Assembly (NCBI GenBank): GCA_041751425.1
Contig: JBGSXL010000013.1
Location: 78,586 to 142,585, forward strand
Direction: 5' to 3'
DNA length: 64,000 nucleotides
DNA from: Pseudohongiellaceae bacterium
GTDB lineage: Bacteria > Pseudomonadota > Gammaproteobacteria > Pseudomonadales > Pseudohongiellaceae
Shown: positions 49,329 through 63,921 of the stretch, piece by piece
Layout: each line of letters starts with the position of its first letter
Position numbering within the stretch: position 1 is the first letter of the stretch
Program-made: the position numbers and the translations under genes
The notes under the pieces: model-generated
What the model was told of the DNA's origin: nothing
Seen by the model: the letters and a program-made list of their open reading frames with translations, nothing else
Databases searched by the model: none

Positions 49329-49345
49329 CCGTCTATCAACTCCTT

Positions 49346-50161
49346 TCAAATTTGACATTGCGGGCAGTACACGGTGCTGCGCTGTCCGATGCGAATTTCT
49401 CGCAATGCGCTGTGGCAACTAAAGCATGGCAGCCCTTTGCGGCCGTATACCTGTAACGATTGTTTGAAATAACCGGGTTGCCCCGTGCCGCCGACAAAAT
49501 CCCGCAATGTTGTTCCACCCATAGCGATAGCGCCTGCCAGAACATGTTTGATATTGCCAACCAACTGCGTGTAGCGCGGCGCTGCGATGCGCCCGGCTGC
49601 TCTGCGCGGATCAATACCGCTCATGAACAGGGCTTCATTGGCGTAAATATTCCCCACGCCAACCACGACATTGCTGTCCATGATGAAAGCCTTGACAGGC
49701 ATCTTGCGACCTTTCGCACGTTCCCGCAGGTAGGCCAGGTTGAAATCATCGGTCAGGGGTTCAGGCCCCAGGTGTTTGAGCAGGGGGTGTTGGCCAGGAT
49801 CTGACGCACACCAAAGGATGCAGCCGAAGCGGCGTGGATCAGTATAGCGCAACGTCTTGTTATGATTAAAAACGATGTCAACATGATCATGTTTTCCCGC
49901 AAGCGTGCCGGTCGTCACAATCCGCATACTTCCTGACATGCCCAGATGAACGATAAAGCACGCTTTGCCGGTATTGATTATCAGGTACTTGCCGCGTCTT
50001 GCGACAGACAGAATCGAATGTCCCGGCAATTCGGTGGCGAGCTCGGGGCTGACGGGCCAACGTAATTGCGACTGGCGAATGATGACCTCTAAAACGGTTT
50101 GCTTCACTACATGCGGTGCGATGCCGCGACGGGTGGTTTCTACTTCGGGTAATTCGGGCAT
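49346..50161 (-). CDS. mutM: formamidopyrimidine-DNA glycosylase
   Basis: N-terminus MPELPEVET and a C-terminal zinc finger (CFSC..CPQCQ). Confidence 0.95.
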
Positions 50162-50325
50162 AGCAGGGTTACCTAATGTGTTACATGCATCGTGGAATAG
50201 GGTCTTTCACTGCACAATTGAGTGGTATTTCGGTTGCTACTTTGATCGCTGCATTATAGATTTACCGTACGGACATTAGCACTCTGCACAGATTAATTAA
50301 TTGTCAAGATTGTCAGGGTTTTATC

Positions 50326-51894
50326 GTGAATATTCTAACTACCAATGAGACGCTTCAAAGTGTCGGCATACCCTTCTCCGGAGTATTGCTGGTTCTTGCT
50401 CTGCAAGCTGCAGTTTTTACCCCGGTTTACGCTCAACAGGTAACTGCGCAGCTGGCAAACACACAGCGGTCGGGTGATTCACAAACAGCCAGCTCGGCCC
50501 AGGCTGCCACTGAGCGCGCAGCCGACGCGACAGATATTGACCAAACAAACGTACAATCTGTAGAGCAGGCTATAGTGCCAATCTCTGCCGTAGGTATAGG
50601 CAGACCTATACCTCTGAGTGAGTTTATGGAACCGCTTCTGTTACCCAGTCTTTTTTCGGAGGCGCTGGATGACGAGGATGCGATGTTGTCCGCAGCTGTT
50701 GCAGCGGAGCAGGCTCAGAGCCTGCCGGATCTGCAGTCCTTGAGCGAAGATGAGGCGTTCATGCAGCGCCAGCTGGATATCACCAGTTACGAGGAATTGC
50801 TGGAAAACATGGAGTTGCAGGGCGGCGCCTGGGACCAGACCTTGTCCGAGGAGTTGATGTCGCTGGGTGATTTACTGCAACAGCAGGGCGATTTTAATAG
50901 GGCGTTAGATGTTTACACACGTGCCGCTCACATCAACAGAATCAACCATGGCTTGATCAGTGTGCAGCAGGTCGAACCCATAGAACGAATTGTTGACACC
51001 CATATCGCCATGAATCAGTGGCAGGAGGCGGACCGCCAGCAACGCTATGCGTTTTATGTTCAGTCACGTGCCTATGATCGTGCTGATCCGCGCCTGATTC
51101 CGGCATTAGACAAACTGGCCAACTGGAACCTGGCTACTTCCAGGCAGGGTCTGGAAGGCGAGCCGATCATCAGAATTCTGGAGGCATACCGACTCTATAA
51201 TGCAGCAGCTGCGTTGGTGACAATTCATTTCGGCAGAAGCGACCCCCGTTATGTCAGTTACCTGAAAAACATGACACAGGCGGCGTACCGCCTGGCGGCA
51301 ATTGGTTCCCAGAATGAAATTGACCGCGCTCTGGTGCGTAATGTGAGCGATACCATCAATGTAAGTTCTGTAACAGGTACGCCGGCAAGTCGTCTGAATG
51401 GTTTCGTGGAGGGCGAACAGGCGTTACGCAATATATACGAATTGTATTCTTCAGAGCGCATGAGTAGTCTAGAGGACATTCCCCAACGACGGGCGCATGC
51501 GATGGCGGAGCTGGGGGACTGGTATCTGCTGTTCAATCGCCGTCAAACCGCATTCCGATCTTACAGAGAGGCTTATGACATATTAGCGGAAGAAGGTCCA
51601 GAACAACCAGCGTTGCTGTTTGACCAGCTCGTGTCTTTGCCGGGTTTTATCGACACCAATCAGGCCCAGCTCTATGAAGGGTTTCAGCAGGGTTATGTCG
51701 ATGTGATCATGGACATAAACCAGTACGGCAGAACCAGTAGTATTGATGTGCTTGCGGTCTATCCGGAAGTTGAGTCGCGCGCGAGCTCTGATGTGGTTCG
51801 CCGGGCACGTATGATGACATTCCGGCCGCGGCTCGATGAAAGTGGTCCAGTCATGACCCGCGGTGTCCGTATGCGGTTTCCGTATTGGTATTGA
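50326..51894 (+). CDS. secreted TPR-like protein with a TonB_C-like C-terminal domain
   Basis: Signal peptide (VFTPVYAQQ), helical repeat region, and a C-terminus (GYVDVIMDINQYGRTSSIDVL...VVRRARMMTFRP) fitting the TonB C-terminal pattern. Confidence 0.6.
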   Translation: MNILTTNETLQSVGIPFSGVLLVLALQAAVFTPVYAQQVTAQLANTQRSGDSQTASSAQAATERAADATDIDQTNVQSVEQAIVPISAVGIGRPIPLSEFMEPLLLPSLFSEALDDEDAMLSAAVAAEQAQSLPDLQSLSEDEAFMQRQLDITSYEELLENMELQGGAWDQTLSEELMSLGDLLQQQGDFNRALDVYTRAAHINRINHGLISVQQVEPIERIVDTHIAMNQWQEADRQQRYAFYVQSRAYDRADPRLIPALDKLANWNLATSRQGLEGEPIIRILEAYRLYNAAAALVTIHFGRSDPRYVSYLKNMTQAAYRLAAIGSQNEIDRALVRNVSDTINVSSVTGTPASRLNGFVEGEQALRNIYELYSSERMSSLEDIPQRRAHAMAELGDWYLLFNRRQTAFRSYREAYDILAEEGPEQPALLFDQLVSLPGFIDTNQAQLYEGFQQGYVDVIMDINQYGRTSSIDVLAVYPEVESRASSDVVRRARMMTFRPRLDESGPVMTRGVRMRFPYWY

Positions 51895-51983
51895 GTGCCA
51901 TAAAACCGCCGAAATTCCGGTCTAGCACGTGACTATCTTTGCAACTGGCTATGCAATTGGGCCAAGGCTATTGGGAGCTTGAA

Positions 51984-53132
51984 ATGAAAACCGTTATCGT
52001 AAAACAGCTGATCAGCATGAGTGCCATGGCATTGTTGCTTGCCGCCTGTGAGTCCTCACAGCAACAACAGTCCAGCCAGTCAAGTATGCCGAGTATGCCA
52101 AGCTCATCGTCGTCTTCGTCTTCGTCGTCATCGCCATCCATGCCAAGCAGTTCGAGCAGCAGTCCAAGCAGCTCGTCATCGATGCCGTCCATGCCATCTT
52201 CGTCGCAATCTTCCTCACAATCCAGTTCGCCAAGCATGCCAAGCTCATCGTCGCAGGGCTCCCGTTCATCGCCCTCCATGCCGTCCAGCAGTAGTTCAAG
52301 CAGTAGTTCAAGCAGCTCGTCTTCTGCAAGTAATCCCGGACAGACCTCGGCCAATGCCGGAAGCACCAGCAGCACGAGCGGAGGCAGCACAGCAGCTGCA
52401 AGCAGCTCTGCAGGAGAGCGAGGAGGTCAGCCTGGCTCTCAAGGTAGTGATATGCCGACATCTGACCGAGGGGAATTTGGTCGAGGTGGCACCTATACGC
52501 TGGATAATCTACCCGGAAGCAATGCATCGGGGCAGGGCACTGATACCGCTGCAGGACCTGCTGGCTCAGGCGGTACTGGAACTGATCCAGCAGGGGCAGG
52601 GTCTACAGCAGCTGCGACCGGGTCAGCACAGGGTTCTGTCAGAGCCGGTGCTGCGGGTGGCGCAGCTCCCGGAGGGGTCATGACTGGCGCGGAACGCGTT
52701 GCTGTTCTGGATGGCGCCCTGAACGGTGCCTTTGGTGATTTTGATGGCTTTATTCTTGCCGAACGAGCGCGTGCGCAAGCGCAAAGTGCCGCAGTTGGCG
52801 ATGATCCTGCCGGATTGAATCAGGAAACAGGAGCGGGAGGCGCTGGTGGTCAACAACCGATAATTCTTGCGGGTGGGGGTGGTGGGTCTGGACAAGGTGT
52901 CGGATCTAACACTATGCCCGGGACTGGTCAGGGTGCCGGTGGTGCTGGTTCACGAGTAGCCACAGGTGGCGACTCTGTTGAAACGTTCCCACCGCCCGAA
53001 GACATTCCCAGTGGTCGTGATGACGATGTGGTTGCCAGACAGTTGCGAGAAGCCGCTATGCGTGAACCTGATCCGGAGTTACGCGAAAAGTTGTGGGATG
53101 AATATCGTGTGTACACAGGCCTGTCGCGCTAG
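51984..53132 (+). CDS. Ser-rich / Gly-Ala-rich low-complexity lipoprotein with a conserved acidic C-terminal helix
   Basis: Lipobox (LLAAC). About 100 aa of S(n)MPS repeats are followed by a G/A/S/T-rich region and then PPPEDIPSGRDDDVVARQLREAAMREPDPELREKLWDEY. Confidence 0.65.
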   Translation: MKTVIVKQLISMSAMALLLAACESSQQQQSSQSSMPSMPSSSSSSSSSSSPSMPSSSSSSPSSSSSMPSMPSSSQSSSQSSSPSMPSSSSQGSRSSPSMPSSSSSSSSSSSSSSASNPGQTSANAGSTSSTSGGSTAAASSSAGERGGQPGSQGSDMPTSDRGEFGRGGTYTLDNLPGSNASGQGTDTAAGPAGSGGTGTDPAGAGSTAAATGSAQGSVRAGAAGGAAPGGVMTGAERVAVLDGALNGAFGDFDGFILAERARAQAQSAAVGDDPAGLNQETGAGGAGGQQPIILAGGGGGSGQGVGSNTMPGTGQGAGGAGSRVATGGDSVETFPPPEDIPSGRDDDVVARQLREAAMREPDPELREKLWDEYRVYTGLSR

Positions 53133-53181
53133 ATCGCGCTTTTTAAGTTGACGGGCAGCAATAAACAAGCAGGTGGTTACA

Positions 53182-54372
53182 ATGATGGTCATACAACGAA
53201 TATATTCAAAACTGTTTCTTACTGCGGCATGTATGCTGTTTATAAGTGCGTGCTCTACCACTTCAGTTCGTAGCACCGAGTTTGTGCGTGTTGTGCAGGA
53301 TGCGACACCAATGAACGAGGACCTGCTGCTTGATATCGGCATTACAGTTTTTGATCCGGGTATTGATGAGATTGCACGTCGCGACGTGGACCGCACCAAT
53401 CTGGAAATTCGGCGTGCCGAATCCCGCTATGCACCTTATCTACTGGTTGAAACGCTGGAGCGCTCAGGCAACTGGGGTGTGGTGCGGTTGATGCCAAACA
53501 AGTTCAGCAATTTCGATGTGATATTGGATGGGCAGATCCTGCTTTCCAACGGCGAATCAATGATTCTGAAAATTACTGCCAGCGATTCTACAGGCAGAGT
53601 CTGGTACACCAAGGAGTATGAGGAAGAGATCAGTCAGTTCAGTTATGACCAGACTCAGCGTCAGGCCAATGACCCTTTCCAGGTGATCTATAACAATATT
53701 GCGAATGACCTGCTGGAATACCGTAAACGCAATTTTAACGAGGCAGCGTTGCGAAATATTCGTTCAGTGACCGAGCTGCAGTTTGCCAAAAGTTTTGCGC
53801 CCGATATTTTTTCTGAGTATCTGACAACTGACAACCGTGGTATTACATCCGTAGTACGCTTAACTGCAGAAAATGATCCTTACATGGAGCGTATGCGGGA
53901 AATTCGTCAGCGCGATAATCTGTTTGTGGATACCGTGCAGGATTACTACGCAACCTACGCGCGCGAAATGCGCGGGCCTTACGATGCCTGGCGCGAACAA
54001 AGTTATCATGAGACGCTGACTCTGGAGGAGGTGGAGCGCTCAGCGCGGCGTCGCTTCATATTAGGTACGGCAGCGCTGGTAGGTGGTATTGCTGCGGCAG
54101 GCAGCAACAACGCAGCGGTTCGTACTGGCGCAATTGTTGGCGTGGGTGCTGGTGCTTATATGGTTAAAAGTGGTTTTGACAGAACCGCTGAAGCCAGAAT
54201 ACATATTGAAGCCCTGCGCGAGTTGGGTGAATCGCTGGAAACTGCGATTGCACCAAAAGTTATCGAATTGGAAGATCGCACCATCATGCTGAACGGAAAC
54301 GTTGAGGAGCAATATGCACAGTGGCGAGAAATTCTGGTAGAGATTTATCGGACTGAGATTGGTGAGATCTAA
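53182..54372 (+). CDS. lipoprotein with a C-terminal glycine-zipper hydrophobic segment
   Basis: Lipobox (LFISAC) and GTAALVGGIAAAGSNNAAVRTGAIVGVGAGAYM near the C-terminus. No family recognised. Confidence 0.6.
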   Translation: MMVIQRIYSKLFLTAACMLFISACSTTSVRSTEFVRVVQDATPMNEDLLLDIGITVFDPGIDEIARRDVDRTNLEIRRAESRYAPYLLVETLERSGNWGVVRLMPNKFSNFDVILDGQILLSNGESMILKITASDSTGRVWYTKEYEEEISQFSYDQTQRQANDPFQVIYNNIANDLLEYRKRNFNEAALRNIRSVTELQFAKSFAPDIFSEYLTTDNRGITSVVRLTAENDPYMERMREIRQRDNLFVDTVQDYYATYAREMRGPYDAWREQSYHETLTLEEVERSARRRFILGTAALVGGIAAAGSNNAAVRTGAIVGVGAGAYMVKSGFDRTAEARIHIEALRELGESLETAIAPKVIELEDRTIMLNGNVEEQYAQWREILVEIYRTEIGEI

Positions 54373-54374
54373 GC

Positions 54375-55862
54375 ATGACCGAACCAGAAAAAGGTTTCAC
54401 AGCGACGCCCATCGCAACGGAAAAATTACCGGCATGGATATGGGTAGCACTTGGCGCTCTAGTGGTAGTTGCGTTGGCGGTAATATTTGTATTGCCGCGT
54501 ATTGTCACAGAGTATGAACTGCCACTAACGCGCCGCCCGGCCGGTAGTGAAGTACCCATAGCGGTGCAAACGAATCCCACGCCCATTACCGCAATTTCCC
54601 CGTTTGATGAAGCGCAACGCGCAAGAGAGCGCGCCGAGGCACAGGATGCGTTAGCCAGTTTGTTAACGCAGCAGCTTGCTCTGGATGAAACAGGCGCTGA
54701 CGATTGGGCGCAGACGGAATATGCCGAAGCAGTTGAATTTGCGCGTCTGGGTGATGAGGCGTATCGAACGCAGCAGTTCGAACTGGCGAGACAGAATTAT
54801 CAACAGGCTGACGATATATTTCGTGATTTGATTGAATCCATGCCGGCAGTTATTGCGGAAGCGGTAACGAAAGGCAATCAGGCGTTGGAGCAGGGCGATT
54901 CCGCGGAAGCGGAACGGCAGTTCACGCTGGCATTGCAGTTGGAGCCGGGCGCCCCCGAGCATGAAACAGGTTTGCAAAGAGCGCGAACTCTGGATGAAGT
55001 GCTGGGTCTGTTGCGTGAAGGCAGACGTCTGCAGGCAGCCGGTCAATTGCAGGATGCGCGCACCCAGTTGCAGCAGGCTGTCACGCTGGACAGCTTCCAT
55101 CAACCAAGCCGGGAAGCGTTGGAGCAAATCAGAGTTGCGATAGCAAATCAGGATTTCGCTGGTGTCATGTCAGAGGGTTTTGCCGCTCTGCAGAATAATC
55201 AGCCAGAGCAGGCTATCACGATTTTCCAGCGTGCACTGAGCATGCGGCCCAATTCACAGCAGGCGCAGGAAGCACTGACCCAGACCCGTGACCAGATTGC
55301 GATTCGCAAAATTACACAGCATCAGAACGCTGCAAATAATTTTGCAGCGTCCGAGCAGTGGCAACAGGCGGTGGCTGAATATGATGCTGCTCTGGCGGTA
55401 GACAGTAATCTCGTGTTTGCCAGCGAAGGCAAAGATTATGCGCAGAAACGTGCGCAATTGGAACTGTTGTTAGAAGACGCCATCGCTAGACCATTGCGGC
55501 TTGCTGAACCAGCGGTGTATGAACAAACGGTTGGCGTTTACTACGCCGGGCGGGATCTGGAATCTCCGGGCCCCCGTTTACAGGGACAACTGGATACTCT
55601 GGAGGTCATTCTGCGCGAAGCGCAAATTCCCGTAGAAGTGCAGTTGGTTTCAGACAATGCCACGGAAGTTATGCTGTATCAGGTTGGTAGCTTGGGGCAA
55701 TTCACCTCCCAGGTATTAAGCCTGCCACCCGGGCAGTATGTTGCAGTGGGAACGCGCCCCGGCTATCGCGATGTGCGTAAAGAATTTGTGGTCGGATTCG
55801 GAAACGAGCCACAGCCCATTACGATTCAATGTAATGAACTCGTGGCAGTAAACAGGCGTTGA
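54375..55862 (+). CDS. membrane-anchored TPR-repeat protein
   Basis: Starts 3 nt after the upstream stop. It has an N-terminal TM (WIWVALGALVVVALAVIFVL) and several TPR-like A..Y..AL..P repeats. Confidence 0.7.
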   Translation: MTEPEKGFTATPIATEKLPAWIWVALGALVVVALAVIFVLPRIVTEYELPLTRRPAGSEVPIAVQTNPTPITAISPFDEAQRARERAEAQDALASLLTQQLALDETGADDWAQTEYAEAVEFARLGDEAYRTQQFELARQNYQQADDIFRDLIESMPAVIAEAVTKGNQALEQGDSAEAERQFTLALQLEPGAPEHETGLQRARTLDEVLGLLREGRRLQAAGQLQDARTQLQQAVTLDSFHQPSREALEQIRVAIANQDFAGVMSEGFAALQNNQPEQAITIFQRALSMRPNSQQAQEALTQTRDQIAIRKITQHQNAANNFAASEQWQQAVAEYDAALAVDSNLVFASEGKDYAQKRAQLELLLEDAIARPLRLAEPAVYEQTVGVYYAGRDLESPGPRLQGQLDTLEVILREAQIPVEVQLVSDNATEVMLYQVGSLGQFTSQVLSLPPGQYVAVGTRPGYRDVRKEFVVGFGNEPQPITIQCNELVAVNRR

Positions 55863-55866
55863 ATCG

Positions 55867-57999
55867 ATGCAGGACAACCGTAAAGAAAATTCGCTGGACG
55901 ACGATGCACTGGAACCAGCTGCTTTTGAACCCATAATCCCCATTGATTTCAGCCCACCCGCTGAAAGTAAAACCGGATTCAAGTTTCGCTTCAACGTCAT
56001 GCATGCGGTCATCGTATCCTTTCTGGCAGTGGCGGGCACTGCTGCCTGGTTTGTGCTGACGGCCAGCTCCGTTTACGTGCAGGCTGATCCCCTCACGGCA
56101 AGCGTTGAATTCAGTTCCGGATTTAATGTAAAAGTCGGACAACGCTATTTAATGCGACCGGGCACTTATGGCGTTGTTCTGCGCAATGAGGGATATCACG
56201 ATTCGGTGGTGGATATCGAAATAACCGATCAGGCTGCACAAATTCATTCCATTGCCATGCAACCGCTGCCGGGTTTGATCCAGTTTTCCGTAACCGCAAG
56301 AAATGGCAGATCAGACGCCGATTTTCCCGCTACAGGCGCCAGAGTCATGATTGACAATGTTGATCTTGGCAGCACGCCACTGGCGCAATTGGAGATTGAG
56401 CCGGGCGACTACGAAATGGTCGTCACACTTGATCGTTATCTACCTTATCGACAAAGCATCAGTATTGCTGGTCGCTCGCAGGAACAGACGTTCAGCGCGG
56501 AGTTGGCACCTGCATGGGCTGATGTCAGCTTCAATACAGAACCTCCCGGCGCCGATGTGATCGTGGGAGGGGAGTTGATGGGAGTGACGCCCATCCGTGC
56601 CGAGGTGTTACAGGGAGCTCATGAAGTTACACTGAAACTTGCGGGACACAAAGCCTGGCAGGACGATTTGCGTGTGGAGGCAGGAGAGGAAAGAACTGTA
56701 CCACTGGTGACTCTGGAGCGCGCCGACGGTCTGGTGTTCATTCGCTCTGAGCCTGGCAATGCTAATGTCACCATCAATGGCGACTTTAAAGGACAGACAC
56801 CTTTGGAAGTTGCGCTGGCTCCGGGGCAACAGCATCAGATAACGTTGTTCCGCAGTGGTTTCAACACAGCCACCCGAACCGTGCGCACCAATCCGGATGA
56901 AGAAAGTGATATCACGATTGCGCTGGTGCCAATTACAGCATCGGTGGATATCAGGGCTGAGCCAGCCGATGCAGAATTATATATCGATGGTGAGCTTCGT
57001 GGCACCGCCAATCAAACGGTGCAGTTGCTGGCCGCCAGCCAGCGCGTGGAAATTCGTAAGCAGGGCTTCGTTCCTTATGCAACAACATTTATTTCACGAC
57101 CTGGTCTTGAACAGGAAATCAGAGTCAGGTTGAAGTCGCTGGAGCAGGCCCGCATTGAAGCTATCCAGCCGGTCATTACCACTGCTGCCGGACAAACACT
57201 GAAACTGTTTTACCCGAAAGAATTCACGATGGGAGCTTCGCGTCGGGAGCCTGGTCGTCGCGCCAATGAAACATTGCGCGATGTCATTCTGGAGAAGCCG
57301 TTCTACCTGTCCCTGCACGAAGTGACGAACGCCCAGTTCAAACGCTTTCGCCCTGATCATAGCTCTGGAACTTTGCAGGGAAGATCGCTTGACCTGGACA
57401 CGCAACCGGCGGTGCAGGTCACCTGGTTGGACGCCGCTTTGTACACCAACTGGCTAAGCCAGCAGGAATCATTGCAGCCGTTTTATCAAGTGGTTGATGA
57501 CGAAGTGGTTGGCGTCAATGCCAACTCTAATGGTTATCGTTTACCTACGGAAGCGGAGTGGGAATGGGCAGCTCGCACAGATGCAGACGGTAACGGAAGT
57601 TTGCGCTTTCCCTGGGGTGAACAACTGCCACCACCGGAGAAGTCAGGCAATTTCGCCGACCGCTCAGCCAGTACTTTCCTGGGCCAGTACATGACGGATT
57701 ACGATGACGGTTTCCTGAGCAGCGCTGCCGTAGGCTCCTTCAATCCCAATGCGAAAGGACTGTATGACCTCGCAGGCAATGTGTCAGAGTGGGTGCATGA
57801 TATTTACGGCGCTGTGGGCACCCTGAGCTCGGTGAAAGAGGTAGACCCTCTGGGTCCGGATGAAGGACGCTTTCGTACCATCAAAGGTTCAAGCTGGGCG
57901 CACAGTGCGATTACCGAGTTGCGACTTTCTTATCGCGATTTTGGAGAGGAAGCGCGCAATGATTTGGGCTTCCGTATAGCGCGTTATCTAGGGGAGTAA
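55867..57999 (+). CDS. membrane-anchored PEGA-repeat protein with a C-terminal FGE-sulfatase (SUMF1/GldJ/GldK-like) domain
   Basis: One TM, then about 4 PEGA-like modules (V.IDG...G.TP). The C-terminus has FTMGAS..., GYRLPTEAEWEWAAR, GLYDLAGNVSEWV, IKGSSW and LGFRIAR, typical of the FGE-sulfatase fold. Confidence 0.8.
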   Translation: MQDNRKENSLDDDALEPAAFEPIIPIDFSPPAESKTGFKFRFNVMHAVIVSFLAVAGTAAWFVLTASSVYVQADPLTASVEFSSGFNVKVGQRYLMRPGTYGVVLRNEGYHDSVVDIEITDQAAQIHSIAMQPLPGLIQFSVTARNGRSDADFPATGARVMIDNVDLGSTPLAQLEIEPGDYEMVVTLDRYLPYRQSISIAGRSQEQTFSAELAPAWADVSFNTEPPGADVIVGGELMGVTPIRAEVLQGAHEVTLKLAGHKAWQDDLRVEAGEERTVPLVTLERADGLVFIRSEPGNANVTINGDFKGQTPLEVALAPGQQHQITLFRSGFNTATRTVRTNPDEESDITIALVPITASVDIRAEPADAELYIDGELRGTANQTVQLLAASQRVEIRKQGFVPYATTFISRPGLEQEIRVRLKSLEQARIEAIQPVITTAAGQTLKLFYPKEFTMGASRREPGRRANETLRDVILEKPFYLSLHEVTNAQFKRFRPDHSSGTLQGRSLDLDTQPAVQVTWLDAALYTNWLSQQESLQPFYQVVDDEVVGVNANSNGYRLPTEAEWEWAARTDADGNGSLRFPWGEQLPPPEKSGNFADRSASTFLGQYMTDYDDGFLSSAAVGSFNPNAKGLYDLAGNVSEWVHDIYGAVGTLSSVKEVDPLGPDEGRFRTIKGSSWAHSAITELRLSYRDFGEEARNDLGFRIARYLGE

Positions 58000-58005: not shown

Positions 58006-58308
58006 ATGCTCAAAAAAAGAAATTGTCTGGTAGCAACATTATTACTATTGCTGACGATTGCATTCTTTGGCGCGCAAAGTGTTTTGACAACAGCTATGGC
58101 GCAAACCCAGGACCAACAAATTCAAACTGACGCCCAGGCTGAAGCGCAGGCAGAATCGGAACCAGAAGCTCAAGCAGATGCGGATAATCCGCTTGAGCTG
58201 GCTGAAGAATTAGATGGTGTTCTGGATTCACAACAGGTAAGCGGCCGCTTCATACCCACCGAAGAAATATCACAGGATCTTGGCGTCTCGTTTCCAGTAG
58301 ACATTTAA
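58006..58308 (+). CDS. small secreted acidic protein
   Basis: Signal peptide (LLLLTIAFFGAQSVLTTAMAQ) and an AQAEAQAESEPEAQADAD acidic stretch. It is tightly packed in the operon. Confidence 0.5.
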   Translation: MLKKRNCLVATLLLLLTIAFFGAQSVLTTAMAQTQDQQIQTDAQAEAQAESEPEAQADADNPLELAEELDGVLDSQQVSGRFIPTEEISQDLGVSFPVDI

Positions 58309-58336: not shown

Positions 58337-59227
58337 ATGAAACAGAATTATCTCTCGGAAGTGATTTATCAGATCTTTGCGCTGATCATTGTCGTGATTG
58401 TGGTGCACGCAGTTTATGTCGCGGTCATTCGGCCCAATGCCGATTTCGTCCAGGAACAGCAGACACTGATGACAGAGGCCGATGAGAATTACGTGCCAGA
58501 ACGCTCCCTTTACATTGTGCTGCGTGATTTCGAACAAGAGACCTGTATCATTCTGATGTTCTGGGCTCTCGCAATCATCGGCATGAAAACTCAGCGCACT
58601 ATAAGAGAGCGTCGATTGCTGGATCGTATGCTGCTGCAGGTGTCGGAAGGTACGAGTATTTTGCCGGAAGATGCACGCCAATATGCGCGGCCGGTGCAGG
58701 CCTTACCGGAGAAGGAGCGCAGATACCTATTACCGCGTGCCATACTCAGCGGATTGCATCGCTTCGGCACCACACGCAGTATTCAGGATGCAGCAGCAAC
58801 CATCAAGGACATGTGTGACAACGAGTCAGAGCGGTTGGAAAGTGAACTGGCCATCGTCCGTTATATTGCATGGGCAATTCCCTCCATCGGCTTCCTTGGC
58901 ACAGTGCGTGGTATCGGTACAGCGCTGGGTCAGGCCCATCAGGCAGTCAGCGGCGACATTTTGGGCGTAACAGTCAGTCTGGGTGTTGCTTTCAATTCTA
59001 CATTCGTTGCACTGGTAACCAGTATTCTGCTGATGTTTCTTTTGCATCAACTGCTGTTGGTACAGGATCGTCTAGTGCTGGACACGCAAGGTTATTGTGA
59101 CGAGCATTTGATTCGTTATCTGCAGGTGCCAGAGCGCGACAGTTTTGATCGCGGCGCGGCTCCTGCCGTCGCTACCACCACTACCGGCACCTCAGCGCCC
59201 TTAATCAATCCAGGTGCTCCCGCATGA
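58337..59227 (+). CDS. MotA/TolQ/ExbB-family proton-channel protein
   Basis: IAWAIPSIGFLGTVRGIGTALG and LGVAFNSTFVALVTSILL match the conserved ExbB/TolQ TM2-TM3 signature (APFIGLFGTVWGI ... IAEALIATAIGL). Confidence 0.8.
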   Translation: MKQNYLSEVIYQIFALIIVVIVVHAVYVAVIRPNADFVQEQQTLMTEADENYVPERSLYIVLRDFEQETCIILMFWALAIIGMKTQRTIRERRLLDRMLLQVSEGTSILPEDARQYARPVQALPEKERRYLLPRAILSGLHRFGTTRSIQDAAATIKDMCDNESERLESELAIVRYIAWAIPSIGFLGTVRGIGTALGQAHQAVSGDILGVTVSLGVAFNSTFVALVTSILLMFLLHQLLLVQDRLVLDTQGYCDEHLIRYLQVPERDSFDRGAAPAVATTTTGTSAPLINPGAPA

Positions 59228-60486
59228 CAATGAAAGTGCTGGAACTCAATGACCATGGCATCAGCATCGGTGACGAAGCTGGAGTACTTGCGACAAGTCC
59301 CGGTTACGCTGTTGCTATAGGCAAAGAGCTTGAGTTCGGCAATATTGCGGCCAGCAAAAGCAAATTGCACCCGGTAACCAGCTCCAATGAATTCTGGCAC
59401 AGGCTGGGCATGGAACCGCTGGCCCGACCAATAGCGCATTATCGTCACTATGCTGATATCGCCTACTCGCACCTGATGCATCTGGCAGAGGAAGTTGCGC
59501 TGGCTGGAGACGTAATCATTGCCGTGCCAGGCAGTTTCTCACGTCAGCAGTTGGCGATACTTCTGGGATTGATCAAACAGAGTCCTTTTCGCGCAGCAGG
59601 CTTGATCGATACTTCGGTGGCGGCGACGGTAGATACTTTCCATGCACAGTCCACCAGTGATGTCGTGGTGTATGCGGACATGCAATTGCATCAGGTAATT
59701 CTGACGCAGTTGCGTTTGCGTGATAACGAATTGGTGCGTGAGTCGGTGACGCAGGTGCCAGGTGTTGGTTGGTCGAATCTTGCCGACAGTCTGGTGCAAT
59801 TGATAACGGATGCCTTCATACAGCAAAGCCGTTTCAACCCTCAACACAACGCGCGTTGGGAACAGCACATGTATGACAGTCTGCCCGGCTGGCTGGCGCA
59901 GGGTTCAGATACTGATAATAATTTGTTGTTGCAGATTCAAACGGATACTGCCTTGCATCAGGCCAAACTGACGCGCTCCAGTATTGTGGCGCGATTGCAG
60001 CCTTTCTATCGCAAGATCAGTCAGCATCTGCATGAACTGCCAGGTAAAAGTGGGCAGATACTGATGGCAGAACGCTTTGCTGTTTTGCCGGGCTTGCGCA
60101 GCGCTTTGGAAGGTGGAGGAGAGCTGGTGCAGGAATTCGTGTCCAGTCACGCCGTGATTTCATCGTGCCTGCGTTACCAAGATCAGCTAATTGGCAATGG
60201 CGAGAACGTGAACTTCACAACGCGGCTGCGTCCAGAACTGCAATCGGTACAACATGATAAACATTCGCACAGGCAAGTCGGTGCTACTCATTCGCAGAAT
60301 AGAAAAAGCCTGGCGCAATTGGGCCAGCACGAAGGACAACTGATTCTGCATAACAGCGAGCCGGGCTGGCTGGTCAATGGCAAGCCTGTCGCAGCAGGTC
60401 ACATACTGCAACCAGGGGATATGTTGCATTTCGCTGACATCCGGCAAGCGTTGCAATTAGTGCAGGTGCAAGATGGCCAGCAATAA
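59224..60486 (+). CDS. degenerate Hsp70/actin-fold-like cytoplasmic protein with an FHA-like C-terminus
   Basis: IIAVPGSFSRQQLAILLGLIKQSPFRAAGLIDTSVAA parallels Hsp70 (AVITVPAYF..QR.A...A..IAGL....I.EP.AAA). The phosphate-1/2 motifs are not conserved. The C-terminus is WLVNGKPV..GHILQPGDMLHF. The ATGA overlaps the upstream gene. Confidence 0.55.
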   Translation: MTMKVLELNDHGISIGDEAGVLATSPGYAVAIGKELEFGNIAASKSKLHPVTSSNEFWHRLGMEPLARPIAHYRHYADIAYSHLMHLAEEVALAGDVIIAVPGSFSRQQLAILLGLIKQSPFRAAGLIDTSVAATVDTFHAQSTSDVVVYADMQLHQVILTQLRLRDNELVRESVTQVPGVGWSNLADSLVQLITDAFIQQSRFNPQHNARWEQHMYDSLPGWLAQGSDTDNNLLLQIQTDTALHQAKLTRSSIVARLQPFYRKISQHLHELPGKSGQILMAERFAVLPGLRSALEGGGELVQEFVSSHAVISSCLRYQDQLIGNGENVNFTTRLRPELQSVQHDKHSHRQVGATHSQNRKSLAQLGQHEGQLILHNSEPGWLVNGKPVAAGHILQPGDMLHFADIRQALQLVQVQDGQQ

Positions 60487-61576
60487 GAGAAAGCGACGTG
60501 GCACATTCGACCCACTGACGCTGGCGTTTCTGGACGTAATGTCCTGTGGCTTTGGCGCCGTGGTGCTGATATTTCTGATTCTGGATCATACGTCCACGGA
60601 ACGCCAAAATGAGAGTGACCCCGTTCTTTCTGCTGAAGTGTCTTTGCTGGAAGAAGAAATCCTGCAAGGTGAAGAACAGTTGGTAAGAATTCGCAATGCC
60701 CTGAACGACGTCAGTCTTGAAGTTGTAACCGCCCAGGGGCTAGCCAGCCGCATGCAAACAGAAATAGAAGATTTCCTGCAGCAACTGGCCGAACTGGAGG
60801 GGATCAGTCTGGGCAGTGAAGAAAGTCTGGAGCAGTTGCGTGCCGATGTGCGATCGCTGGAGGAAGACATACTGCGTCTGCAGACCACGGCGGTAGTAGA
60901 AACAGGTGATGACGCCCGCGAGTTTATAGGTGAAGGTGACAGGCAATATCTGACCGGCCTGTTTCTGGGTGGGAATCGTATTCTGATATTGCTGGATATG
61001 TCAGCCAGCATGATGGACGAGACGTTGGTCAACATCATCCGCACGCGCAATATGCCGGATGCCTCCAAAAAAGTAGCGCGTAAATGGCAACGCGCTGTGA
61101 AAACAGTGGATTGGATCACCAGTCAGTTGCCGTTGGGCAGTCAATACCAGATTGTCGCCTTCAACAACCAGATAAAGCCGGTTGTACCAGGCACAGAAGG
61201 AGTCTGGTTGGAAGTGGCAGACAGGGATGGACTTAATGCCGCCATGCGCCATGTGCAGGATCTGGTGCCGGCTGAGGGTACCAATTTACAGCAGGCTTTT
61301 CAGGCTGTATCGGATCTTAGTCCGCGACCTGACAATATATATTTGATAACCGATGGTCTGCCAACCTTGTCCAACCGGGCATCGTCCAGTAGGCTGATAA
61401 CACCGGAGGACAGACTGAAGTTGTTCGAGGATGCCGCTGAGTTCCTGCCCCGCAATATCCCCGTCAATATCATTCTGTTTCCACTTGAGGGTGACCCCAG
61501 TGCTGCAGCAGCCTATTGGGTGCTTGCGCAAAGCACAAGAGGGTCTTTTATGAGTCCATCACGGGACTGGCCATAA
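60473..61576 (+). CDS. ExbD/TolR-like TM helix + coiled coil + vWA domain protein (paralog 1)
   Basis: Basic N-terminus, then LAFLDVMSCGFGAVVLIFLIL with Asp at 60533-60535. A heptad-rich region follows, then vWA MIDAS elements (DMSAS, GTN, TDG). Confidence 0.7.
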   Translation: MASNKRKRRGTFDPLTLAFLDVMSCGFGAVVLIFLILDHTSTERQNESDPVLSAEVSLLEEEILQGEEQLVRIRNALNDVSLEVVTAQGLASRMQTEIEDFLQQLAELEGISLGSEESLEQLRADVRSLEEDILRLQTTAVVETGDDAREFIGEGDRQYLTGLFLGGNRILILLDMSASMMDETLVNIIRTRNMPDASKKVARKWQRAVKTVDWITSQLPLGSQYQIVAFNNQIKPVVPGTEGVWLEVADRDGLNAAMRHVQDLVPAEGTNLQQAFQAVSDLSPRPDNIYLITDGLPTLSNRASSSRLITPEDRLKLFEDAAEFLPRNIPVNIILFPLEGDPSAAAAYWVLAQSTRGSFMSPSRDWP

Positions 61577-62571
61577 TGCGTAGAAAACGTCAGGCAGAAG
61601 GAGCAGGCATCGCATTTCTCGACGTCATATCCTGCGGGTTTGGCGCCATCATCCTGTTGCTGATGATTACTGAAAGCTCTGCCCCTGTCACACTTGAGGT
61701 GACTACGGACGCCGAACGGCCCGTGGCGGAGCTACAGCAGGAATTATTCGCTATACGCGGCGAAACTGCCATTGTGAACCGTGATCTCAATGCCAAGCGT
61801 GAGCAGCTGTCCGCTTTTCAGCAGAGACTGGCCATCCTGCAACGTGAACGCAATATGGTCCAGGCCCGCTATCGTGCCTCAGTGGATATGTCCGACGAAG
61901 TCGTTGACGAAGAAACCCGTCTGGCTATCGCCAAACAATCGCTGACCGCAGAGATGCAGCGCCTGTTGGGGGAAGATTTTACCCGCAGCAACGATCTTGT
62001 AGGAGGTATCCCTGTAGATAGTGAATACATTATCTTTGTGATTGATACTTCCGGTAGTATGTATCAGGCCGCCTGGAGAAAGATGCTCGATATCGTGGTG
62101 GAGACTCTGGATATTTATCCGGAAGTCAAAGGCATACAGGTGATGAATGACATGGGTGAGTACATGTTCAATTCATACCGCAACCAGTGGATCCCGGATA
62201 CTCCCGGACGGCGCAACGCCATTATCAGCACTTTGCGCAACTGGAGTCCGTTCAGTAACAGCAGCCCGGTGGAAGGGGTGACGCGAGCCATCAGTTCGTT
62301 CTACGCGCCGGACAGGAAAATAAGCATTTATGTGCTGGGCGATGACTTCCAGCCGGGTGGTTCGATTTCACAGGTGATTCAAACCATCGATAGAATCAAT
62401 CAGGCGGACGCCGATGGTAATCGCATGGTAAGAATTCATGCCATCGGCTTTCCAGTAATTTTTTCACTGCAGCCGCGCTTCCATCAGAGCGCTTATCGCT
62501 TTGCCAATCTGATGCGAGAGTTGACACATAGAAACGGTGGCACTTTTGTAGGATTGAATACTTTCGAATAG
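61576..62571 (+). CDS. ExbD/TolR-like TM helix + coiled coil + vWA domain protein (paralog 2)
   Basis: MRRKRQ...IAFLDVISCGFGAIILLLMI with Asp at 61621-61623, then a coiled coil and vWA elements (IFVIDTSGSM ... VLGDD). The TAATG overlaps paralog 1. Confidence 0.7.
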   Translation: MRRKRQAEGAGIAFLDVISCGFGAIILLLMITESSAPVTLEVTTDAERPVAELQQELFAIRGETAIVNRDLNAKREQLSAFQQRLAILQRERNMVQARYRASVDMSDEVVDEETRLAIAKQSLTAEMQRLLGEDFTRSNDLVGGIPVDSEYIIFVIDTSGSMYQAAWRKMLDIVVETLDIYPEVKGIQVMNDMGEYMFNSYRNQWIPDTPGRRNAIISTLRNWSPFSNSSPVEGVTRAISSFYAPDRKISIYVLGDDFQPGGSISQVIQTIDRINQADADGNRMVRIHAIGFPVIFSLQPRFHQSAYRFANLMRELTHRNGGTFVGLNTFE

Positions 62572-62594: not shown

Positions 62595-63251
62595 ATGAGT
62601 TTGATAGCGATTGGAAACACAGCAAGTAAATGCACACTCAATCTGCTGCCGCAGTTTCGCCGGATTTTGCTGCTGCTTGCAGTGTTGAGCATGAGTGCTT
62701 GCGGTGTCAGCTCCGTCACTGTGTCCGGTAGTTATCCCACTCCCAACATTGACAGAATTCCACTTAGCCTGGGCGTCTATTATGACGATACCTTGCGTGA
62801 GCATGCCTATATTGAATACACGGAAAACGGCAATGAAGAGTATCGGGTAGCCAGTGGCGATTCGCATATCGATTTGTTCGCCTCCATTCTGCCGGCCATG
62901 TTTGATCGCGTGGTGTTGCTGAATGACCCGGAGGGCGGCAGCGCGGCCGGTGTTGATCTGGTATTCGCTCCGGCCATAGAAGAGTTTCAACTGGCGCTAC
63001 CACAGAAAACCAGGCTCGACGCCTACGAGGTGTGGGTGAAATACAATATGCGGCTTTCGGCACCTGATGGTGGGTATATTGCTGACTGGGTGTTAACCGC
63101 TTACGGCAAAACATCACAGGAAGGGTTCAGCTCCGTAGAAGCCGGGATAAACAATGCGGCGGTCTCAGCGTTGCGAGATCTGGGATCCAATTTCGCACTG
63201 ACTTTTACCAGTGTGCCTGACGTCAGGGATTGGCTGAATTCCCGTTTGTGA
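62595..63251 (+). CDS. lipoprotein, hypothetical
   Basis: Lipobox (LSMSAC), operon position, no recognised family. Confidence 0.6.
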   Translation: MSLIAIGNTASKCTLNLLPQFRRILLLLAVLSMSACGVSSVTVSGSYPTPNIDRIPLSLGVYYDDTLREHAYIEYTENGNEEYRVASGDSHIDLFASILPAMFDRVVLLNDPEGGSAAGVDLVFAPAIEEFQLALPQKTRLDAYEVWVKYNMRLSAPDGGYIADWVLTAYGKTSQEGFSSVEAGINNAAVSALRDLGSNFALTFTSVPDVRDWLNSRL

Positions 63252-63261: not shown

Positions 63262-63921
63262 ATGAAAGCGGTATTCATGAAGATCAGTGCGCTGATATTA
63301 CTTGCGCTGATGAGTGCCTGCACTACAACCACGATTGATGAGTTCCGGCAGGGTGAAACCGGTATCGAAAGCCACGAGTCAATTGTTCTGCTGGGTCGCA
63401 GACAAGGCAGCAACTACGAGACGCGTGCAGAGTTTGTGGAATGTGTAGGCGATAGAGTAAAACGTGGCACGGGTGGCATCAATGTCATCCCGGAGCAGGA
63501 GTTCGTTGATGCCATGTTCCCTTGGTTTGAACCGCGTACAGCACCGATGCGCAGCACTGACATGCAGGTGTTGATGGAACAACCACAGGTAGCTCAGAAA
63601 ATCTCAGATTATGGTATTCGATATATTGTCTGGCTGGATGGTCAGACTGAGACCAGCAACCGGGTGGGCTCCATTTCCTGCACGGTGGGTCCGGGTGGTG
63701 GCGGTTGTTTCGGTTTTGGTTCCTGGGAAGATGATTCCAATTTCGATGCGCGAATCTGGGATGTGAATTCCTTCGTCAATGTTGGCGTAATCAGTGCTGA
63801 CGCGACTGGTCAGTCTTACCTGCCGGCTATTGTGGTGCCCATTCCCCTGATAGCGAGGGTTGAAGCCAACGCCTGCAACAGTCTTGCCGAGCAGCTTAAA
63901 CAATTTGTGTACGGTAATTGA
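63262..63921 (+). CDS. lipoprotein, hypothetical
   Basis: Lipobox (LMSAC), operon position, no recognised family. Confidence 0.6.
   Translation: MKAVFMKISALILLALMSACTTTTIDEFRQGETGIESHESIVLLGRRQGSNYETRAEFVECVGDRVKRGTGGINVIPEQEFVDAMFPWFEPRTAPMRSTDMQVLMEQPQVAQKISDYGIRYIVWLDGQTETSNRVGSISCTVGPGGGGCFGFGSWEDDSNFDARIWDVNSFVNVGVISADATGQSYLPAIVVPIPLIARVEANACNSLAEQLKQFVYGN

Follow-up and report, generated by a model that had tools for sequence, protein, structure and literature searches.

A vWA-headed candidate ion-driven motor encoded in an 11-gene operon of a Pseudohongiellaceae bacterium

Two adjacent genes in a 64-kb window of a Pseudohongiellaceae genome (the whole stretch analysed, 64,000 nucleotides) raise the question of what an Asp-bearing membrane helix, of the kind found in ion-driven motors, does on a protein that ends in a vWA domain with a metal-binding MIDAS site. 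The pair occupies 60473–62571 on the + strand, as do all genes described here, and carries every feature ascribed to it in a first-pass annotation made from the letters alone. vWA1 (60473..61576, 367 aa) consists of a basic cytoplasmic tail (aa 1–14, beginning MASNKRKRRG), a TM or “trans-pore” helix (aa 15–37, nt 60515–60583) with Asp21 (nt 60533–60535) and Cys25, a helical stalk (about aa 45–145, nt 60605–60907), and a vWA domain (aa 165–367, nt 60965–61573) with the MIDAS residues D175-M-S177-A-S179, T270, and D294; its C-terminal W366-P367 is invariant. vWA2 (61576..62571, 331 aa) is built likewise, with a tail (aa 1–9, beginning MRRKRQ), a helix (aa 10–31, nt 61603–61668) containing Asp16 (nt 61621–61623) and Cys20, a stalk (about aa 38–140), and a divergent vWA domain (aa 147–331; D157-T-S159-G-S161, S229/S230, D256). 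Both tails and both helices, LTLAFLDVMSCGFGAVVLIFLIL in vWA1 and AGIAFLDVISCGFGAIILLLMI in vWA2, read as the annotation had quoted them. We place the start of vWA2 at the ATG at 61576 and not at the upstream TTG at 61516, in line with a 331-aa database entry of 100% identity; this start overlaps the TAA stop of vWA1 by 1 nt. The N-termini share 43% identity over 37 aa (BLASTP, E 6e-8), and profile-profile comparison (probability 99.8%, E 8.8e-30, 315 columns) confirms the proposed tandem paralogy, which extends across the whole length of the two proteins.

The helices of both proteins follow the motif F-L-D-x3-C-G-F-G-A. Asp21 of vWA1 is present in all 104 diverse relatives that cover the position (32–60% identity), in which F19, L20, C25, G26, and G28 are nearly invariant, and Asp16 of vWA2, along with the entire FLD...CGFGA motif, is found in 77/77 orthologs. 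Loss of the Asp among homologues, which the annotation had named as a finding that would count against it, was seen in neither paralog, and the residue is retained in Verrucomicrobia relatives as well. By these alignments the conservation of the helix is far above chance, and an Asp that is invariant within a near-invariant helix at 30–60% overall identity disfavours a plain membrane anchor. The flanking charges (+4/+3 on the N side, −3/−4 on the C side) indicate cytoplasmic N-termini and periplasmic vWA domains, in agreement with the topology first argued from the positive-inside rule and against the cytoplasmic placement of the vWA domains that would have refuted it. Read directly, the sequences contain no His in the hydrophobic span and no SHLS (Ser-His-Leu-Ser) motif, and vWA1 and vWA2 are the sole operon proteins with an Asp in a TM helix.

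The annotation had described this helix as being of ExbD/TolR type. The layout is there (a basic cytoplasmic tail, a single helix, and an Asp a short way into the membrane from the cytoplasm), but the likeness is one of motif only, and homology could not be demonstrated by sequence comparison. The comparison with PF02472 that the annotation had recommended returned no match at E<=10, either for whole proteins or for 30 N-terminal segments, and PDB chains of ExbD, TolR, and MotB gave no match to the helices at the same threshold. In hhalign the Asp falls in register with ExbD D25 and TolR D23, at a probability of <1% against single ExbD/TolR sequences and of 40% against a three-sequence profile (pairwise P 3e-4, the alignment opening a gap of 5 residues at CGFG). 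Beyond the membrane, the ExbD-fold periplasmic domain is absent from both proteins; unlike ExbD and TolR, they carry a coiled-coil-like stalk and a vWA head in its place, and their helix has an extra invariant C-G-x-G.

The heads are vWA domains with conserved metal sites. vWA1 scores above the Pfam VWA_2 cut-off (41.2 vs 27 bits), and its fold is confirmed at the level of an AF2 model (pLDDT 80–90 over residues 165–365) whose Foldseek neighbours include ITIH1, anthrax-toxin receptors, BatB, CLCA1, and integrin I domains. vWA2 falls under the cut-off of the Pfam vWA profile (17.8 bits) and is assigned through its profile-profile match to vWA1, at 99.8% over the whole domain. In 116 vWA1 sequences the MIDAS residues are kept at D175 (109/116, Glu in 6), S177 (116/116), S179 (111/116), T270 (100/116), and D294 (116/116), and D157, S159, S161, and D256 are each present in 77/77 vWA2 sequences, with Ser229/Ser230 where vWA1 has its MIDAS Thr. 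The alignments thus put the MIDAS residues nearly on a par with the TM Asp, and the conservation check suggested earlier came out positive for both heads. The intervening stalk is helical over about 100 residues in both proteins (helices 50–109 and 117–142 in the vWA1 AF2 monomer, at low confidence). As to the heptad-rich character claimed for it, a 3.5-residue hydrophobic periodicity was significant in vWA1 (p about 0.001) and not in vWA2 (p 0.17), and this is a weak test, since a vWA-domain control also scored high.

A candidate channel is encoded in the same transcriptional neighbourhood. The 296-aa product of 58337..59227 belongs to the MotA/TolQ/ExbB family (PF01618, 48.4 bits vs a cut-off of 22.9) without being a TolQ or ExbB equivalog (24.6 vs 221 bits and 20.2 vs 135 bits, respectively), and is presumed to be the pentameric partner of the vWA pair. 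Its pore residues T189 (GTVRG, nt 58898–58912) and T222 (NSTF, nt 58994–59005) are invariant in 76 orthologs, align with TolQ T145/T178 (alignment to TolQ 105–212), and belong to a motif retained in distant loci too. The gene lies two genes upstream and is translationally coupled to the vWA genes through a 420-aa gene, overlaps of 4 nt (MotA-like/420-aa), 14 nt (420-aa/vWA1), and 1 nt (vWA1/vWA2) chaining the four together. Both vWA paralogs are found in 82/82 loci of the first comparison and in four distant loci, and the MotA-like, vWA1, and vWA2 trio is what remains in all loci compared, one of them reduced to just these three genes. A phmmer search of the ORFs in all six frames, with the E. 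coli proteins ExbD and TolR as queries, found no exbD or tolR in the 64-kb window or in 82 related loci, bar one stray match at a locus edge; in 80 other genomes none lies within 10 kb of the cluster. The system resembles ExbB-ExbD and TolQ-TolR in its PF01618 channel with two pore threonines, and differs from them in having no TonB/TolA-type third component and an axle that would be a heterodimer of paralogs.

These gene-context data bear on a rival reading, in which vWA1 and vWA2 are ordinary membrane-anchored periplasmic proteins of the BatA/BatB type, the helix serves to anchor them and nothing more, and the MotA-like protein has its B subunit gene at another place in the genome or has no B subunit at all. 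Foldseek lists BatB as a structural neighbour of the vWA1 head, the helices lack a significant ExbD match, and the arrangement of an N-terminal TM helix, a periplasmic MIDAS vWA domain, and a TPR protein in the operon is that of Bat systems, in which TPR proteins likewise accompany vWA proteins (the match here is a weak BatC-type one). Anchors drift, however, whereas 8 of about 12 consecutive helix positions, the buried Asp included, are invariant here in two paralogs across phyla. Moreover, the three genes stay together and are coupled in translation, no exbD or tolR gene that could supply a B subunit lies near, and Pfam searches of the cluster found no gene for the MoxR ATPase typical of Bat operons. 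Those operons, in turn, have no MotA-type channel, and their anchors have neither a conserved Asp motif nor a coiled-coil stalk. We regard this reading as unlikely.

The first-pass annotation took the architecture to be undescribed, and on this point it had been anticipated. A class of TPH-vWA pairs encoded beside tolQ-like genes was predicted in 2025 with AlphaFold 3 models (Mol Biol Evol 2025, msaf138; PMC12204202, Fig. 4c,d), and in the models of a relative, which are predictions, two Asp residues sit inside the pentamer, ringed by Thr. That paper gives Idiomarina loihiensis as an exemplar and reports the class from Proteobacteria and Verrucomicrobia. The present locus shares each descriptor given there: a single N-terminal Asp-bearing TM helix that tethers a C-terminal vWA domain, a heterologous vWA pair next to a tolQ-like gene with no tolR, exbD, or motB near, a helix free of the SHLS motif, and a Thr ring in the channel, the Idiomarina exemplar being compared by its description. 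Its relatives, in Gammaproteobacteria, Betaproteobacteria, and Opitutae/Puniceicoccaceae, also fit the range described there. The design of an Asp-bearing helix joined to a vWA head is real and widely conserved, and had already been predicted computationally. Hsp70 is not mentioned in the main text or text supplements of PMC12204202, nor do its vWA passages mention an FHA partner, a PEGA/FGE protein, lipoproteins, or the invariant Cys-Gly-x-Gly; relative to that published text, the Hsp70-NBD-like/FHA protein, the PEGA/FGE protein, the TPR protein, several lipoproteins, and the 11-gene operon described below extend the picture.

The same source also describes a separate vWA family with TonB-like SHLS helices, predicted to bind the outside of the pentamer (PMC12204202), and the present proteins could in principle be such TonB/TolA-like force transducers and not a central axle. 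Their overall shape (TM helix, long linker, globular head) does recall TolA. The helices, however, carry an Asp in place of the His-containing SHLS motif, the linker is helical and heptad-like, not Pro-rich, and TonB/TolA-type systems always have an ExbD/TolR gene, of which none was found here. This leaves a peripheral role quite unlikely.

Instead, we consider it likely that the MotA-like protein, vWA1, and vWA2 form an ion-driven, 5:2-type inner-membrane motor with a vWA1/vWA2 heterodimer as its axle. The MotA/TolQ/ExbB-family protein would form a pentameric channel, and the Asp helices of one vWA1 and one vWA2 would stand side by side in its central pore, in the position of ExbD, TolR, or MotB; that the helices enter the pentamer is probable from gene context and the published AF3 models of a relative. 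Protonation and deprotonation of Asp21/Asp16 against the Thr189/Thr222 ring would make the flow of protons turn the pentamer relative to the heterodimer. The stalks of about 100 residues may pair as a heterodimeric coiled coil, about 15 nm long, that carries a pair of MIDAS-competent vWA heads out into the outer periplasm. There a metal ion would link the heads to an acidic residue of a partner, most likely one of the co-conserved envelope proteins, such as the PEGA/FGE-like protein, a lipoprotein, or the TPR protein, and the heads would either pass force to this partner or use it to hold the axle in place. We infer the 5:2 assembly, the heterodimer, and the rotation, and likewise what the heads bind, what the Hsp70-like protein does, and what the system does in the cell. 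The motor reading is favoured by the invariant Asp helix in both paralogs, by a bona fide PF01618 partner in which both TolQ-equivalent pore threonines are invariant, by the chain of gene overlaps and the persistent trio, by the lack of a nearby exbD/tolR gene and of any other Asp-bearing TM helix in the operon, by the N-in/C-out charges together with the vWA fold and the MIDAS conserved in both heads, and by the published AF3 models of a relative with two Asp within a Thr ring (PMC12204202). It is weakened by the lack of statistically secure helix homology to ExbD, TolR, or MotB and by the extra Cys-Gly-x-Gly, as well as by the weak coiled-coil signal of vWA2 and the low AF2 confidence of the stalk.

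Between the channel and axle genes lies the gene for a cytoplasmic protein of 420 aa without a TM segment (59224..60486). It has no sequence match in Pfam or the PDB, and its AF2 model (pLDDT 88) assigns residues 1–335 to the Hsp70 nucleotide-binding-domain fold, with Hsp70, Hsp110, and DnaK NBDs as Foldseek matches (E about 1e-15, TM 0.6–0.7). A small C-terminal beta domain (aa about 360–416) is, by profile comparison, degenerate and FHA-homologous, since the positional equivalent in locus L084 (hhalign probability 99.7%, E 3e-26) ends in a Pfam FHA domain (E 7e-12). ATPase activity appears doubtful from the sequence, because the Gly-rich phosphate-2 loop (DLGGGT in Hsp70) is replaced by ADMQLHQV, of which L155-H156-Q157 is invariant. 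The protein may dock from the cytoplasm, either to the domain that the pentamer has there or to the basic N-terminal tails, and may gate or localise the motor. Where a lineage has Ser/Thr kinases encoded nearby, phospho-threonine recognition might be the means.

Its presence invites a variant of the motor reading, in which the assembly is the same, its vWA heterodimer is fixed by the MIDAS heads to a periplasmic or outer-membrane structure, and the output is rotation of the pentamer, acting on the Hsp70-like/FHA protein or on neighbouring inner-membrane proteins. The coupling of a cytoplasmic protein between channel and axle genes in 77/82 loci suits such an arrangement, and in MotAB it is the B dimer that is the anchored element, MotB being clamped to peptidoglycan. 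The minimal locus L086 has no Hsp70-like gene, however, which marks that gene as accessory, and the PEGA/FGE and TPR proteins each have a single TM helix that is not conserved and contains no SHLS-like motif. We give the fixed heterodimer a small but appreciable chance, the computations being compatible with fixed-axle and moving-axle modes alike.

The cluster as a whole is an 11-gene operon whose core recurs in Verrucomicrobia. Zorya, an anti-phage defence system, is likewise built on a 5:2 complex of MotAB-like proteins that bears unusual appendages, and a Zorya-like function could be read into the present genes on that resemblance. PADLOC, however, gave no meaningful match (coiled-coil noise at E about 2e-3 only), the locus adjoins the housekeeping genes ftsY, rsmD, coaD, and fpg, the same 10-gene order is kept across several gammaproteobacterial families, unlike a mobile defence island, and the accessory proteins are all envelope proteins, so we hold the chance of a defence role to be next to negligible.

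Among these accessory proteins, an inner-membrane-anchored PEGA/FGE protein (55867..57999, 710 aa) has an N-terminal TM helix, four PEGA domains (Pfam E 1.5e-48), and a C-terminal FGE-sulfatase-like domain (4.5e-40) without the catalytic Cys pair, the segment KGSSWAHSAITELRLSYRD having no Cys; its gene is kept in 70/82 loci and in Verrucomicrobia. GldL-GldM (PorL-PorM) is a 5:2 motor that serves type 9 secretion and gliding together with the GldK/PorK-GldN/PorN ring; its dimeric subunit sends a long arm through the periplasm toward an envelope complex with an FGE-sulfatase-fold protein. An FGE-fold protein is co-conserved with the motor here as well, but the present motor has no sequence relationship to GldL or GldM, and no T9SS genes were seen in the cluster. 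We rejected the PEGA/FGE protein as a GldK/PorK equivalog (TIGR03525, 101.9 bits vs a cut-off of 350): unlike GldK, it has PEGA domains and a TM anchor in place of a lipid one, with no lipobox, and the likeness suggested by its sequence is at domain level only. In Myxococcus, the AglR-AglQ-AglS gliding motor combines a TolQ-type channel with two different TolR-like B-type subunits, and CglB, a MIDAS vWA adhesin, is reportedly the force-bearing element of the same machinery, as a separate outer-membrane lipoprotein. Two different B-type subunits and a MIDAS vWA domain recur here, with the vWA domain fused to the B-type helix.

The remaining genes encode an inner-membrane-anchored TPR protein with a conserved C-terminal beta domain (54375..55862, 495 aa), a small exported acidic protein (58006..58308, 100 aa) with a C-terminal segment kept in roughly one locus in three, and four predicted lipoproteins. 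Directly downstream of vWA2 lies lipoprotein A (62595..63251, 218 aa; co-conserved in 73/82 loci), followed by lipoprotein B (63262..63921, 219 aa; 67/82 loci), which has four conserved Cys and a GGGGCFGFG motif. Upstream, a 399-aa lipoprotein (53173..54372), co-conserved with the cluster, has a Gly-rich hydrophobic segment near aa 297–335, and a 397-aa lipoprotein (51939..53132), whose gene is probably among the first of the operon, combines a long low-complexity linker of Ser, Pro, and Met with an acidic C-terminal segment that is conserved.

A tight run of genes on the forward strand occupies approximately 51.9–63.9 kb of the window, with gaps of 3–40 nt between genes. In order, it encodes a predicted Ser-rich lipoprotein (51939–53132), a 399-aa lipoprotein (53173–54372), a TM-anchored TPR protein (54375–55862), a TM-anchored protein with four PEGA domains and an FGE-sulfatase-like domain (PEGA/FGE, 710 aa, 55867–57999), a small acidic exported protein (58006–58308), a 296-aa MotA/TolQ/ExbB-family protein (MotA-like, 58337–59227), a 420-aa cytoplasmic protein (59224–60486), two vWA-domain proteins, vWA1 (367 aa, 60473–61576) and vWA2 (331 aa, 61576–62571), and the lipoproteins lipoA (62595–63251) and lipoB (63262–63921). 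The four central genes (MotA-like, 420-aa, vWA1 and vWA2) overlap by 4, 14 and 1 nt and are therefore considered translationally coupled. The start of vWA2 is the ATG at 61576 and not a TTG further upstream, and a 331-aa database protein is 100% identical to it. A promoter and terminator scan of the operon found no signal above shuffled expectation. Upstream (46755–51894) lie genes for an ftsY-like SRP receptor, an rsmD-like methyltransferase, a coaD-like cytidylyltransferase and fpg/mutM, followed on the same strand by a 522-aa TPR protein (50326–51894) that may be the first gene of the operon. Since the cluster adjoins these housekeeping genes (ftsY, rsmD, coaD, fpg) and a PADLOC search of it returned coiled-coil noise with no defence signature, it is no mobile defence island, and we rejected an anti-phage reading.

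The first-pass annotation described vWA1 and vWA2 as tandem paralogs, each with a basic tail, a near-identical Asp-bearing TM helix, a heptad-rich stalk and a vWA head carrying a metal site (MIDAS), and every feature that it listed was found in both sequences. The proteins align over their full length (profile–profile probability 99.8%, E 8.8e-30, 315 columns), with the metal-site residues (DxSxS, Thr/Ser and Asp) in shared columns, and their N-termini share 43% identity across 37 residues (E 6e-8). Among 116 full-length representatives of 50%-identity clusters (32–60% identical to vWA1), Asp21 is present in 104/104 relatives that cover the position, F19, L20, C25, G26 and G28 are nearly invariant, and the MIDAS residues are strongly retained (D175 109/116, S177 116/116, S179 111/116, T270 100/116 and D294 116/116). 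Likewise, Asp16, the FLD...CGFGA motif, D157, S159, S161 and D256 of vWA2 are invariant in 77 orthologs drawn from genome loci, and [FL]S[LM]SF[LM]DCICCGFGA is kept in both paralogs of distant Verrucomicrobia and metagenome relatives. The C-terminal domain of vWA1 scores above the Pfam VWA_2 cut-off and has a predicted fold with pLDDT 80–90, and the structural neighbours of the head model include ITIH1, anthrax-toxin receptors, BatB, CLCA1 and integrin I domains.

Between the TM helix and the head of vWA1, AF2 places helices at residues 50–109 and 117–142 with low confidence. The proposed heptad repeat fared unevenly: Fourier periodicity was detected in vWA1 (p ~0.001) but not in vWA2 (p 0.17), and because a globular control likewise scored high, we count the test as weak support for a coiled coil. 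Searched against the PDB, the vWA2 profile draws coiled-coil proteins (IFT74, keratin, Lpp and myosin). Charges of +4/+3 before the helix and −3/−4 after it put the tails on the cytoplasmic side and the vWA domains on the periplasmic side, the orientation first suggested for them. Each protein also has a sole, invariant cysteine (Cys25 of vWA1, 60545–60547; Cys20 of vWA2, 61633–61635) one helical turn past the Asp (D-x3-C-G-x-G), for which ExbD, TolR and MotB have no counterpart; Verrucomicrobia and metagenome relatives carry two or three cysteines at that helix site (DCICCGFGA).

The helix had further been assigned to the ExbD/TolR type, and here the layout is present, but the proteins are not members of PF02472. 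Aligned by hhalign to E. coli ExbD and TolR, D21 falls in register with D25 and D23, at a non-significant probability of <1%. A 170-sequence profile aligned to a three-sequence ExbD/TolR N-terminal profile reached a probability of 40% (pairwise P 3e-4), which required a 5-residue gap that coincides with the invariant S-C-G-F-G segment. When 30 N-termini of the two paralogs were combined into a profile, it retrieved no ExbD, TolR or MotB chain from the PDB at E<=10, its only match being a TM segment of mitochondrial NDUFB4 (E 0.28), and the same 30 segments matched no Pfam family at E<=10, PF02472 included. At the level of sequence, then, the helix resembles those of ExbD, TolR and MotB, with homology not demonstrable. 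As the profile searches gave no significant match, the argument that it works like ExbD draws on context and conservation instead of homology.

That context is provided by the adjacent channel gene. The MotA-like protein matches PF01618 with 48.4 bits against a cut-off of 22.9, and scores far under the TolQ and ExbB equivalog cut-offs. In an alignment to residues 105–212 of E. coli TolQ, its Thr189 (GTVRG) and Thr222 (NST) correspond to Thr145 and Thr178; both are invariant in 76 orthologs, and the motifs are kept in distant loci. A phmmer search with E. coli ExbD and TolR against all six-frame ORFs of >=90 aa from the window and 82 related loci gave one match only, at the far edge of one Microbulbifer locus, and no Asp was seen in any other TM helix of the operon. 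The PEGA/FGE and TPR helices were considered as TonB/TolA-like riders on the pentamer via an SHLS motif; we rejected this because the His of the PEGA/FGE helix is unconserved and neither single TM helix is conserved.

Ion-driven 5:2 motors (MotAB, ExbBD, TolQR, GldLM, ZorAB) currently draw much attention in bacterial cell biology, and to our knowledge the dimeric subunit of all of them ends in a peptidoglycan-binding or system-specific domain. We think it probable that the core of the present system is a 5:2 proton motor with the composition MotA-like5:vWA1:vWA2, while confidence in any specific output of this motor is low. The two Asp helices would form the central axle, resembling the heteromeric AglQ/AglS subunits of the Myxococcus motor, and the paired stalks would raise two MIDAS heads ~15 nm into the periplasm. 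There the heads could bind a co-conserved envelope protein through one of its acidic residues, and thereby pull on that protein or anchor the axle. An axle with two integrin-like, metal-dependent adhesion heads would couple proton flow to reversible periplasmic protein binding, which would be a new output for this class of motors.

The first-pass annotation had not seen the architecture described, but the class is already in print, in a passage on vWA proteins in a 2025 paper (Mol Biol Evol 2025, msaf138; PMC12204202). That passage describes TPH-vWA proteins that lack the SHLS motif, carry a TolR/ExbD-like trans-pore helix with a conserved Asp and occur "predominantly in heterologous pairs" in Proteobacteria and Verrucomicrobia; AlphaFold 3 models for Idiomarina loihiensis put both Asp inside a conserved Thr ring, and the function is given as unknown (PMC12204202). 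The present locus agrees with every tested descriptor given there, and is placed in the class by those descriptors and not by an exemplar sequence; no Idiomarina names occurred among cluster look-ups of 20 representatives. The finding is real, accurately described and mechanistically well reasoned, and it adds one more member to a class that was predicted in 2025. Only the motor trio (MotA-like, vWA1 and vWA2) is noted in those passages: Hsp70 is not mentioned in the main text of PMC12204202, an FHA partner, the PEGA/FGE protein and the lipoproteins are absent from its vWA passages, and in the supplementary text searched vWA, Idiomarina and TPH occur in a figure legend only. Beyond that paper, a literature search found no functional study or other account of this gene combination and no experiment on the vWA1/vWA2 family, and recent work on MotAB diversity and on Ton/Tol motors does not mention vWA partners. 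The basic idea is in print as a prediction; what remains of value is the measured conservation and the set of conserved partners, with the 420-aa protein first among them, and these turn an AlphaFold-based suggestion into concrete experiments.

The 420-aa protein has no sequence match in Pfam, NCBIfam or the PDB. Its predicted fold (alignment of 55 homologs, pLDDT 88) matches the nucleotide-binding domains of Hsp70, Hsp110 and DnaK (E ~1e-15, TM 0.6–0.7). It keeps the phosphate-1 Asp (N9-D10-x-G12) and D152, which opens phosphate-2; in place of the Gly-rich phosphate-2 loop it has M-Q-L-H-Q, in which L155, H156 and Q157 are invariant, so canonical ATPase activity is doubtful. By hhalign, the whole protein aligns with its equivalent on the metagenome contig L084 (probability 99.7%, E 3e-26, 435 columns), and its C-terminal beta domain (~360–416) aligns with the C-terminus of that equivalent, where an intact Pfam FHA domain is found (residues 432–498, E 7e-12). 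By the structural matches and this alignment to the FHA region, the protein is an Hsp70-NBD-like domain joined to a degenerate FHA domain; on the cytoplasmic face of the motor it could serve as a gate or localiser. A 499-aa protein in the equivalent position of a Verrucomicrobia locus (L083) could not be linked to it by homology (hhalign probability 0.2%, no Pfam match). The L084 cluster is flanked by Ser/Thr protein kinases (L084:1834–4410 and L084:13023–16964), one of them fused to Laminin_G, FGE-sulfatase and C-type lectin domains, which suggests phospho-threonine control in some lineages.

The vWA1 family is large: of the representatives of 50%-identity clusters, 1299 match at E<=1e-3 and 321 still do so at E<=1e-30. 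Its carriers include cultivated marine bacteria, for example Microbulbifer, Congregibacter and Pseudohongiella. A genome scan with one genome per species gave 593 confirmed stretches, and the 80 that were kept are almost all from Gammaproteobacteria (Pseudohongiellaceae, Halieaceae, Cellvibrionaceae/Microbulbifer, Porticoccus, Woeseiaceae and Lysobacterales); in the more distant clusters, named members belong to Steroidobacteraceae, Betaproteobacteria, Opitutae and Puniceicoccaceae. Where contigs are long enough, the order is lipoprotein–TPR–PEGA/FGE–(small)–MotA-like–420-aa–vWA1–vWA2–lipoA–lipoB, and across the 82 loci the MotA-like and 420-aa genes are each present in 77, lipoA in 73, PEGA/FGE in 70, lipoB in 67 and TPR in 66. 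A Puniceicoccaceae contig encodes PEGA/FGE, MotA-like, a 499-aa protein, two vWA genes and a 229-aa gene, and L084 a kinase, PEGA/FGE, MotA-like, a 512-aa FHA protein, two vWA genes and a kinase/FGE fusion. The distant contig L085 lacks PEGA/FGE, and the distant locus L086 (9131–12024, beside pheST/rplT) is a minimal version with MotA-like and two vWA genes, with no Hsp70-like and no PEGA/FGE gene; the trio thus makes up the invariant core, to which the other genes are common accessories. In L086 the MotA-like gene call is 212 aa long and may be cut short after the third TM. A D-x-[ST]-x-[ST] pattern search found no match in the first vWA paralog of L086 (10001–11035) and a sole match in that of L085 (7060–8130), DETVT at residue 217, well downstream of the usual MIDAS position; the second paralog of both retains D-[ST]-S-G-S. 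Judged from these patterns, some lineages may have one vWA head that no longer binds metal.

Co-conservation of the PEGA/FGE protein with the motor extends to Verrucomicrobia. It scores 101.9 bits against the GldK model (cut-off 350), so that it is GldK/PorK-like, and recalls GldK/PorK beside the GldLM motor, at the domain level only. Its FGE-sulfatase-like domain also lacks the catalytic Cys pair. Taken jointly, it is possible, though on balance doubtful, that the 11-gene operon (~51.9–63.9 kb) forms an uncharacterised trans-envelope machine common to marine Gammaproteobacteria and Verrucomicrobia. Its drive would be the 5:2 proton motor with the vWA1/vWA2 heterodimer axle, the pseudo-Hsp70/FHA protein would exert control from the cytoplasm by reading threonine phosphorylation, and periplasmic work would be done on the GldK/PorK-like PEGA/FGE scaffold and outer-membrane lipoproteins. 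Such an operon would be a proteobacterial counterpart of the GldLM–GldKN or Agl–Glt machines, in logic and not in ancestry, and it might serve for surface movement, secretion or outer-membrane tethering. The conserved partners (Hsp70-like/FHA, PEGA/FGE, TPR and lipoproteins) are concrete ligand and regulator candidates that make the question directly testable.

Several smaller features were observed in the envelope proteins. The lipoprotein at 51939–53132 has a ~120-residue low-complexity linker made nearly entirely of Ser, Pro and Met (SSMPSMPSSSSSSSS...) and a conserved acidic C-terminal segment, 70–90% identical in several other genera. The small exported protein (58006–58308), a candidate MIDAS ligand, has a very acidic middle (QTDAQAEAQAESEPEAQADADNPLE) and a C-terminal segment that is 70–95% identical in about one third of related loci. 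LipoB (63262–63921) has no family match, and contains four conserved cysteines, a GGGGCFGFG motif and a conserved FPWFEPRTAP segment. Finally, vWA1 ends in ...SPSRDWP-COOH (61565–61573), with W366-P367 invariant and D365 invariant in closer homologs, and this terminus might act as a docking motif or be bound by the MIDAS of the partner head.
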